The notes beneath the pieces were generated by a model that saw only the letters and a program-made list of their open reading frames with translations, had not been told where the DNA came from and searched no databases. The position numbers and the translations under genes are program-made. Positions 56,770 to 57,654 of a stretch of DNA of 64,000 nt are shown here, one piece after another (the stretch's first letter is position 1; the number at the start of each line of letters is the position of its first letter). The stretch comes from Lytechinus pictus. Taxonomy: Eukaryota. The DNA lies in the NCBI RefSeq assembly GCF_037042905.1, contig NC_087245.1, positions 22,632,001 through 22,696,000 on the forward strand. Direction: 5' to 3'.

Positions 56770-57654
56770 ATGGGTTTTATTTACTACGGAGAAGAGATCG
56801 CAATCGTGTCCAGCACAAGGCCCGTTCGACTTGATATTGGGGTGCGTGCAATGAAAAAGAACACACCTGGGAGCCACTCATCCTGGGCAACTAGATTGAT
56901 CATCAAGCGCCTCGATGGACCTAATGAAGGACCGGTGGAGGATAATCACGAGGTGGGAATATTCAGTGAGAACAACGAAACCAGGCTAGATGTTGGTTCT
57001 TGGTCTATGAAAGAAGAGGTGCCTTCTAGTCATGCAAGCTGGGCAACTGTTCTCAAAATTACAACCGTCAAGGGCAACAGGGGCCGGAAAAGGGACAAGA
57101 AGGGTCGTCAAGTTGTCCAGTACGGGGATAAGGTTGGGATCTTCTCCAGCACTGCCGATTGTCGTCTTGATATTGGTTCGGACGCAGTGAAACCCATAAG
57201 TAGTAGCCATGACAGCTGGGCTACTCGCCTCCATATTCAAAAGATCCATGAGACAGAGGATAGTGGTATCGCAAGGAAGTTTATCGACGAGTGGCCACAT
57301 GCTACGATTCATATCCAGGTCTTTGACGATCGCGACCACTCCGGTCTGCCCGTCAGTGTTGCCAAGAACCTGTGGAATAAATCGGGGCTGCGTCAGTACA
57401 AGGAGAAGAGAGAATCCTTTGATAGCGACGACTTTAGCTATGTCTACAAGGGAGCTGTGTCCAGATACGCGCACGATGAAGCGATGGAATGTCCTTATGC
57501 TGTGGGCATCGTCTTTGGGAAGAAGTCAGGAGCAAAGCATGCTTGCAACGTATTCCTTGATGAGGATAACAATGTGAAGATTTTGGAACCACAAAACGGA
57601 ACCGTTCTTGATGGGGCAGAATGGGACTGTACACCATATTTTGTCCTCATTTAG
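56770..57654 (+). CDS. Intronless MOA-like chimerolectin: three-repeat (probable beta-trefoil) domain plus Agglutinin_C papain-like domain
   Basis: Clean 294-aa ORF, ATG in CCATCATGG context, AATAAA at 57716. Three N-terminal repeats (I.S....RLD(I/V)G..SH.SWAT.L.I). The C-terminal LW.KSGL..FDSDDF...K.AV..HACN..EPQNG matches recalled Marasmius oreades agglutinin motifs IWKDSGL..YDCDDF...KAAV..HAYN..EPQNG. Confidence 0.85.
   Translation: MGFIYYGEEIAIVSSTRPVRLDIGVRAMKKNTPGSHSSWATRLIIKRLDGPNEGPVEDNHEVGIFSENNETRLDVGSWSMKEEVPSSHASWATVLKITTVKGNRGRKRDKKGRQVVQYGDKVGIFSSTADCRLDIGSDAVKPISSSHDSWATRLHIQKIHETEDSGIARKFIDEWPHATIHIQVFDDRDHSGLPVSVAKNLWNKSGLRQYKEKRESFDSDDFSYVYKGAVSRYAHDEAMECPYAVGIVFGKKSGAKHACNVFLDEDNNVKILEPQNGTVLDGAEWDCTPYFVLI

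Follow-up and report, generated by a model that had tools for sequence, protein, structure and literature searches.

Here we describe an intronless gene of the sea urchin Lytechinus pictus whose product, P0001, has the design of an MOA-type chimerolectin, the class named after the Marasmius oreades agglutinin (MOA), in which an N-terminal beta-trefoil is joined to a C-terminal papain-like Agglutinin_C domain. The window that we analyzed is the whole stretch of 64,000 nucleotides at C1:22,632,001-22,696,000, and the open reading frame (ORF) that encodes P0001 lies within it at 56770..57654 on the + strand (C1:22.69 Mb). The protein brings this design to an animal with two departures, since its trefoil is of an undescribed kind and its C-terminal domain is most likely catalytically disabled. 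MOA-type chimerolectins are described as a fungal family in PMC8244254, and our literature search, which covered a limited library without supplements, found no paper that describes an animal or diatom protein with Agglutinin_C or of the MOA type. On balance, we lean modestly towards reading P0001 as a horizontally acquired, leaderless, dimeric multivalent binding protein that lacks MOA-type protease activity.

P0001 has the architecture of an MOA-type chimerolectin

The ORF comprises 294 codons and a stop, running from ATG to stop, and an in-frame stop codon (TAA at 56701-56703) is found 66 nt before its ATG. These results bear out the preliminary description of this DNA, made from the letters alone, which had reported a clean intronless ORF of 294 amino acids without a signal peptide: in the full-length model the first trefoil strand begins at the N-terminus, leaving P0001 with no leader peptide. 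The start ‘MGFIYYGE’ is common to P0001 and its complete-transcript relatives. The ATG stands in the context ACCATCATGG, with A at -3 and G at +4. By consensus match only, a candidate polyadenylation signal (AATAAA at 57716..57721, +) lies 62 nt past the stop, more AATAAA copies are located at 57881 and 57976, and a TATAAG is found 195 nt upstream of the ATG. The ORF is single copy, as its own protein matches nowhere else in the 812-Mb, 368-contig assembly.

The C-terminal half of P0001 (residues 166-294; 57265..57651, +) is a true Agglutinin_C papain-like domain of the MOA/PSL type, the type associated with dimerization, as recognized by Pfam, phmmer and Foldseek. Pfam family PF18021 (Agglutinin_C) matches residues 196-278 with an E value of 1.3e-18 (67.7 bits, the cut-off being 26.8), well outside what chance would give, and the related family Lectin_C_term also matches P0001 (1.4e-9). 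PF18021 and PF18022 are reclassified as papain-like in PMC10318531. Against PDB sequences, phmmer retrieved PSL (3PHZ) at 2.8e-13 and the MOA entries at 2.4e-8 to 8.2e-7. The full-length AlphaFold2 model, built from a 50-row alignment, reached a mean pLDDT of 92.5, and its Foldseek alignments to PSL (2.8e-14) and MOA (2e-13 to 1e-12) cover both domains. The MOA-like architecture proposed in the preliminary description is consequently upheld by profile, structure and model, and all seven MOA motifs that it had listed are present (DRDHSGLP, WNKSGL, DSDDF, KGAV, GIVFG, HACN and EPQNG) and are aligned to PSL/MOA by phmmer.

MOA itself (PDB 2IHO, 3EF2, 5MU9) resembles P0001 in its length of ~290 amino acids, in being leaderless and in the layout of beta-trefoil plus Agglutinin_C. 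P0001 is, however, only 18-20% identical to MOA over the structural alignment, comes from an animal host and falls in a distant tree clade, and its trefoil is of another sequence family, with an SHxSWAT motif and no ricin-B match in Pfam. PSL1a from Polyporus/Cerioporus squamosus (PDB 3PHZ, 5MUA; P0153 in our collection) is the best PDB match of P0001 in both sequence and fold and shares the two-domain layout; unlike P0001, it has a Cys/His/Glu triad with W at -7 from the nucleophile and belongs to a far-off clade of 20 rows.

The solved MOA and PSL structures are dimers, and the C-domain of P0001 probably still dimerizes, judging from its models. Two copies modeled together scored 0.56, against 0.00 for the best of three controls, with at least 97% contact agreement between runs and a partner pLDDT of at least 88. 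The mark used for this score is reached by 21/30 same-chain-pair proteins and 0/23 single-chain proteins in a microbial benchmark, and by 17/29 pairs (7/16 for animals) and 0/30 single chains in a eukaryotic one; only 1/7 eukaryotic pairs without an older solved relative reach it. As solved MOA/PSL dimers exist and a pass may therefore reflect memory, the two-copy model shows likeness only, not binding.

The putative active site has lost its nucleophile and oxyanion-hole residue

The variable position of the D.DDF motif corresponds to the catalytic Cys of MOA, and in P0001 it is a Ser, which the preliminary description had not remarked on. Ser219 (codon AGC at 57424..57426, +, one base from TGC) occupies the position of MOA Cys215 in the phmmer alignment and in the family rows. 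Seven residues before it, as counted in the alignment, Glu212 (GAG at 57403..57405, +) takes the place of the oxyanion-hole residue, MOA Trp208. The remaining residues are kept: His257 (CAT at 57538..57540, +) aligns with MOA His257, Glu273 (GAA at 57586..57588, +) with MOA Glu274 and Gln275 with MOA Gln276, and the DxDD segment is also conserved. Glu215 of P0001 aligns with MOA Gln211, which PMC8244254 names as a ligand of the binuclear Ca2+/Mn2+ site of MOA; Glu is found here in sister sequences as well. We also considered W202, in ‘NLWNKSGL’, as the oxyanion-hole Trp and rejected it, because by alignment count it equals MOA W198.

Among 95 C-domain rows, the nucleophile column holds Cys in 82 and Ser in 9, and the triad is Cys/His/Glu in 76 and Cys/His/Asp in 4. 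Position -7 could be scored in 91 rows, with W in 50 and Y in 24; W never occurs together with Ser. According to PMC8244254, MOA C215A and C215S are without activity, and W208A and W208Q lose part of their activity and stability. Taken together, the Ser219 and Glu212 replacements and the inactivity of MOA C215S indicate that the C-domain most likely has no working MOA-type cysteine-protease activity. The Ca2+-dependent papain-like toxin activity envisaged in the preliminary description is thus not sustained for P0001.

One could still suppose that P0001 is an active MOA-like toxin, whose trefoil binds a glycan and whose C-domain cleaves proteins in a Ca2+-dependent manner through a Ser-His-Glu triad, Ser219 being the nucleophile. 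His257, Glu273, Gln275 and the DxDD segment are kept, fold and predicted dimer are intact, and a second protein, P0124, also keeps Ser, His and Glu. However, P0001 and P0124 are the only two rows with this triad, and the other 7/9 Ser-bearing relatives have lost the His too, which suggests that the Ser forms are inactive. The Glu at a position where 74/91 rows have W or Y, the excess of urchin C-domain changes at invariant columns and the loss of activity in MOA C215S speak against this explanation as well, and we regard it as unlikely.

The two halves of P0001 are unequally conserved

A 52-row alignment of the trefoil has 36 columns in which 80% or more of the rows agree, and P0001 is changed at none of them; its changed fraction is the lowest of the 52 rows (median 0.107). 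The terminal branch of P0001 in the trefoil tree is correspondingly short (0.10, against 0.39 for P0002, its diatom-named sister). The C-domain behaves differently. Within the 14-row clade that contains P0001, 5/35 columns invariant in the other members are changed in the urchin protein (I201L, C219S, V234A, Y235H and Y287C), compared with 0-2 changes in 12/13 sisters and 8 in the divergent P0082. Terminal branches in the C-domain tree are 0.48 for P0001, 0 to 0.46 for the sisters and 1.16 for P0082. Accordingly, P0001 and P0002 are 71% identical over the trefoil and 52% over the C-domain. At the variable columns, P0001 has 42/94 changes, so that changes still avoid the conserved columns (14% versus 45%). 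From these patterns, the binding half looks strongly constrained; the catalytic half seems to be under relaxed or redirected constraint, though it does not appear to decay freely.

Another way to account for these changes is that the gene is a silent or decaying relic, a young, horizontally acquired insertion that is unexpressed or unselected and whose ORF is merely still open. Such a relic would fit the five invariant C-domain columns that are changed and the two catalytic residues that are gone; likewise, the product was not retrieved from a protein collection that includes the annotated proteins of L. pictus, and none of the listed runs is recorded as RNA. In contrast, a trefoil with no conserved column changed and with the shortest relative branch in its clade, next to a C-domain at 52% identity, is unlike uniform decay. 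The frame of 294 codons is intact and is accompanied by A at -3, G at +4 and the AATAAA past the stop, and the C-domain changes avoid conserved columns, as described above. We therefore consider a relic rather improbable, though it deserves more weight than an active toxin.

The trefoil belongs to an uncurated family joined to many effectors

The N-terminal half (residues 1-160; 56770..57249, +) is confidently predicted to fold as a beta-trefoil, like that of MOA, on the basis of a domain model (27-row alignment; pLDDT 93.7, pTM 0.88) and of structural matches. The pattern G.FS....RLD(I/V)G..(A/S)(M/V)K...P.SH.SWAT.L.I is present three times, with RLD(I/V)G...SHxSWAT in each repeat. By sequence, this three-fold-symmetric trefoil is not a ricin-B domain and belongs to an uncurated, cross-kingdom ‘SHxSWATRL’ triple-repeat family. 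Pfam assigned the N-domain to no family at E values up to 1, RicinB included, and a profile of the trefoil family had no match among PDB sequences (best E 0.56). The Pfam family MIR (PF02815) matched 1/27 trefoil-family members, at an E value of 0.04. The relatives P0022 and P0023, unlike P0001, carry PF14200.

Structural comparison places the domain among trefoils in general. The sole Foldseek match at E ≤0.001 was an SDF2-like MIR protein (9.1e-4), followed by Symfoil, Pmt and RyR/IP3R trefoils. When 48,161 representative chains were compared in a VIA search, 15 gave Z of at least 5 and none Z of at least 8, and all 50 listed matches are beta-trefoils. The top matches, both with Z 5.8, were the MIR domain of Pmt4 (105 residues, rmsd 3.6) and 1T9F (102 residues, rmsd 2.9); this lead of MIR is weak, with Kunitz, ricin-type and FGF trefoils within one Z unit. 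The trefoil of the Laetiporus sulphureus lectin (LSL, PDB 1W3A) is also among the structural matches (Z 5.1). In contrast to LSL, P0001 has no pore-forming module, and its trefoil has no sequence relation to the ricin-type trefoil of LSL.

An exhaustive phmmer search with the whole query found 215 proteins at E ≤0.001 among 1.84 billion representatives. We collected 183 proteins, with the trefoil in 104, the C-domain in 95 and both in 16, namely P0001, P0002, P0006/P0037, and P0004 with its cluster members. In a scan of 76/94 non-redundant carriers (the 18 left out were P0001, short fragments and cluster duplicates), a Pfam partner was found at E ≤1e-5 in 21. The partners were ETX_MTX2/aerolysin in 7, a matrixin/astacin metalloprotease in 3, Agglutinin_C in 2 and DUF2589 in 2, with one case each of beta-lactamase, LprI, PG_binding_1, AIG1, FGE-sulfatase, PhyH and Lipase_3. 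The seven fusions to ETX_MTX2/aerolysin link the family of the urchin trefoil to the lectin-aerolysin/ETX type of toxin, of which LSL is an example and in which a beta-trefoil does the targeting.

The trefoil also occurs in prokaryotes, where it was confirmed at 10 loci in 185,579 species genomes, with 40-57% identity. These loci are in Phaeobacter, Corticimicrobacter, Thiolinea, Symploca, Chlorobiaceae (two contigs of one metagenome-assembled genome), an alphaproteobacterium, Alteromonas, Limibaculum and NC10. In viral contigs (IMG/VR), no relative of the trefoil was found. Since it is a small module joined to many effectors, as are the targeting domains of toxins, the trefoil would most likely serve as a surface- or glycan-binding targeting module. 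With no Pfam or PDB sequence relative, 40-57% identity between urchin and bacteria and at least 10 kinds of effector, it is a good candidate for a novel lectin or targeting module whose ligand is conserved.

Beside the Agglutinin_C fusions, two JGI proteins, P0009 and P0038, carry the same trefoil and the MGFIYY start fused to a beta-lactamase-fold domain (E 7e-45). They group with the urchin and diatom-named trefoils (99/94), which implies that, within a single lineage, this trefoil has been passed from one effector to another. Separately, seven IMG/VR viral contigs (L012-L018) encode Agglutinin_C-like domains that are only distantly related, matching parts of the C-domain at 28-39% identity.

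The gene is embedded in sea-urchin DNA

The ORF is a genuine gene of a Lytechinus pictus-type sea-urchin chromosome, linked to undoubted host DNA. Downstream, 3.2 kb from the ORF, we found the first exon of a cholinesterase-like (COesterase) host gene (60860..61237, +). It shares 99% identity with ‘cholinesterase 1-like [Lytechinus pictus]’, and its identity to the proteins of L. variegatus and S. purpuratus is 87% and 70%. Residues 1-143 of this 604-residue protein are the only ones that align in the window, and a GT donor follows them, which shows that the host gene is split. Thus, the preliminary description was right to place the ORF in an animal genome, beside host genes interrupted by introns.

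Host repeats lie on both sides. The one upstream (54575..56200) spans ~1.6 kb, is bounded by 49-nt terminal inverted repeats and matches the urchin’s own genome at least 281 times, in copies that are 79-97% identical and spread over many contigs; it ends ~570 bp before the ATG and is probably a non-autonomous DNA transposon. Downstream, ~2.1 kb past the stop, there is a palindromic MITE-like repeat of ~300 bp (59739..60051), with dozens of copies in both orientations at 76-83% identity. Neither inverted or direct repeats nor target-site duplications were found bracketing the ORF, and consequently no vector element was identified for it. The ORF and the host exon have the same GC content (0.486), and the flanks (0.36) do not differ in GC from host intergenic DNA. 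Of the sampled words of the stretch, 0.64-0.81 are present in three Logan runs of organism A, which come from two studies. Runs of organism B contain only 0.10-0.12 and are uninformative about an orthologue in a second species.

These data bear on the idea that the ORF reflects assembly contamination, diatom or other food DNA having been mis-joined into an urchin contig. The nearest named relative is indeed a diatom, diatoms are food of sea urchins, and the ORF is unique in the genome. However, host repeats and a host gene flank the ORF on the same chromosome-scale contig, 22.7 Mb into it, and retroelements lie in the same window, which makes contamination very unlikely. The host-like GC of the flanks and the coverage of most of the stretch by runs of organism A from two studies also argue against it, and P0001, only 60-64% identical to any sampled relative, corresponds to no known diatom sequence.

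Other elements of the window are located further from the ORF. A Penelope-like retroelement remnant (11206-13304, +) consists of two overlapping frames with weak RVT_1 and GIY-YIG matches. A BEL/Pao-type LTR retrotransposon (29782-34683, -) matches Peptidase_A17 (1.9e-44), DUF5641 (2.4e-29) and an integrase, with its frame broken into several ORFs; BEL/Pao elements are not known outside animals. Long tandem or low-complexity repeats at 42052-42990 (-) and 21095-21677 (+), made of ~146-nt units and a ‘SIYL’ microsatellite, give rise to spurious ORFs.

The nearest relatives suggest a marine microbial eukaryote as the probable source

The best full-length match of P0001 is P0002, with 60% identity over 100% of the query, whose source name is Entomoneis sp. 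CCMP2396 (MMETSP/EukProt). P0036 is 64% identical, with the same start and architecture plus a 67-residue insertion. More generally, P0002 and the marine relatives P0036, P0034, P0004 and P0006 share the fusion and the ‘MGFIYYGE’ start with P0001, at 60-64% identity, and are placed next to it in both domain trees. They differ from it in keeping the nucleophile Cys and, in most, W at -7 (P0006 has R); none of them is known from an animal. In P0036, P0034 and P0004, the 67-residue insertion is situated between trefoil repeats 2 and 3, a feature of the P0036/P0004 group.

The C-domain tree comprised 80 rows, after 3 short rows and 12 near-duplicate cluster members had been dropped. P0001 falls in a 14-row clade (99/94) with P0002, P0006, the P0004 group, P0082, P0043 (MMETSP) and P0012/18/21/22/23. 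A different clade, of 20 rows, holds PSL (Cerioporus squamosus), and a group of 35 rows holds the proteins of Burkholderia and Roseateles. The latter include the bacterial ‘lectin MOA-related protein’ (P0078 of the Burkholderia cepacia complex; P0044 of Roseateles), with an Agglutinin_C domain 43-49% identical to that of the urchin; unlike P0001, these proteins have other N-terminal parts and an intact Cys triad. In the trefoil tree, P0001 and P0002 are sisters (98/89) within a 99/94 clade that also holds the beta-lactamase fusions with the MGFIYY start. The two domain trees agree, and therefore the fusion has moved or descended as a unit.

No echinoderm-named match was found and none above 64% identity, though the protein collection includes the echinoids L. 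pictus, L. variegatus, S. purpuratus and Diadema. An Atlas look-up returned clusters from Basidiomycota and Pseudomonadota only. The family is extremely patchy, with 215 representatives in 1.84 billion, which makes horizontal transfer a reasonable explanation. We consider transfer from a marine microbial eukaryote the best reading and a likely one. The foreign origin suggested in the preliminary description is retained in this form; the fungal or bacterial source that it had proposed is not, as the nearest relatives form a clade of their own in both trees, while PSL and the named bacterial members lie elsewhere.

Vertical inheritance would instead require an ancient eukaryotic gene that was kept in the urchin lineage and in diatoms and lost nearly everywhere else. 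Both domains are found in eukaryotes as well as in bacteria, and the absence from other animals rests on predicted proteins only, so orthologues in other urchins could be hidden in the same way as the product of this ORF. On the other side, very many independent losses would be needed to leave so few representatives and no other animal-named match, the gene has no intron and only one copy in a genome rich in introns, and 71% trefoil identity to the diatom-named protein appears high for an animal-stramenopile divergence. Descent of this kind seems to us improbable.

Among the environmental relatives, metagenome contig L019 probably contains an intron or a frameshift, since the first part of its match lies outside its longest ORF. 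Poly(A) is absent from the ends of contigs L019 and L020, and this test does not show them to be of eukaryotic origin.

Discussion

Our model proposes that a ready-made fusion of trefoil and Agglutinin_C entered the urchin lineage from a marine microbial eukaryote, of the lineage of the diatom-named sequence. The trefoil would bind a surface or glycan ligand, and the Agglutinin_C domain would dimerize without proteolysis, so that P0001 may act as a lectin-like agglutinin or recognition factor. We observed the sequence itself, which domains it encodes, which residues are substituted, how it is linked to host DNA and where it falls in the trees; that the protein is expressed, binds a ligand, dimerizes and no longer cleaves proteins, and when and in which direction the gene was transferred, are matters of inference. 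The glycan-targeting defense role assigned to the protein in the preliminary description may apply to P0001. Sea urchins offer a precedent for an acquired gene in the msp130 genes, for which a bacterial-to-metazoan horizontal transfer has been proposed (PMC11878542 and PMC7351957). Msp130 is an unrelated protein with a proposed bacterial donor, and it is widely shared among animals.

Several observations weigh against this model. The composition and CpG of the ORF match those of the host exon and bear no mark of foreignness. Only one member of the nearest clade, P0002, is named to organism, and it comes from the transcriptome of a culture; the other members are environmental or transcript contigs that could include animals. 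The protein collection did not yield the product of this ORF, which may be unannotated, and none of the sequencing runs matched to the stretch is recorded as RNA. The five changes at invariant columns and the two catalytic losses also fit the early decay of a non-functional insertion, and a Ser-His-Glu triad, which P0124 shares, could in principle keep some hydrolysis. Finally, the best structural matches of the trefoil (MIR, Z 5.8) are weak and tied with many trefoil classes.

A bolder version, which we offer only tentatively, is that P0001 would be the first animal MOA-type chimerolectin, which the urchin took over from a diatom-like organism in its food and domesticated to serve as a dimeric, protease-dead lectin for recognition, perhaps in immunity, in the gut or on the larval surface. 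Its trefoil would then represent an undescribed cross-kingdom module that is coupled to pore-forming toxins, proteases and hydrolases in bacteria, protists and perhaps animals.

The MOA-type architecture, here built on a different trefoil, is now found on a chromosome of an animal as well as in a diatom-named transcript and marine metatranscriptomes. If both the transfer and the expression of the gene hold true, an animal would have gained a eukaryotic toxin-type gene, kept its binding half and let the catalytic half lapse. P0001 would then represent a natural experiment in the conversion of a toxin into a recognition protein.

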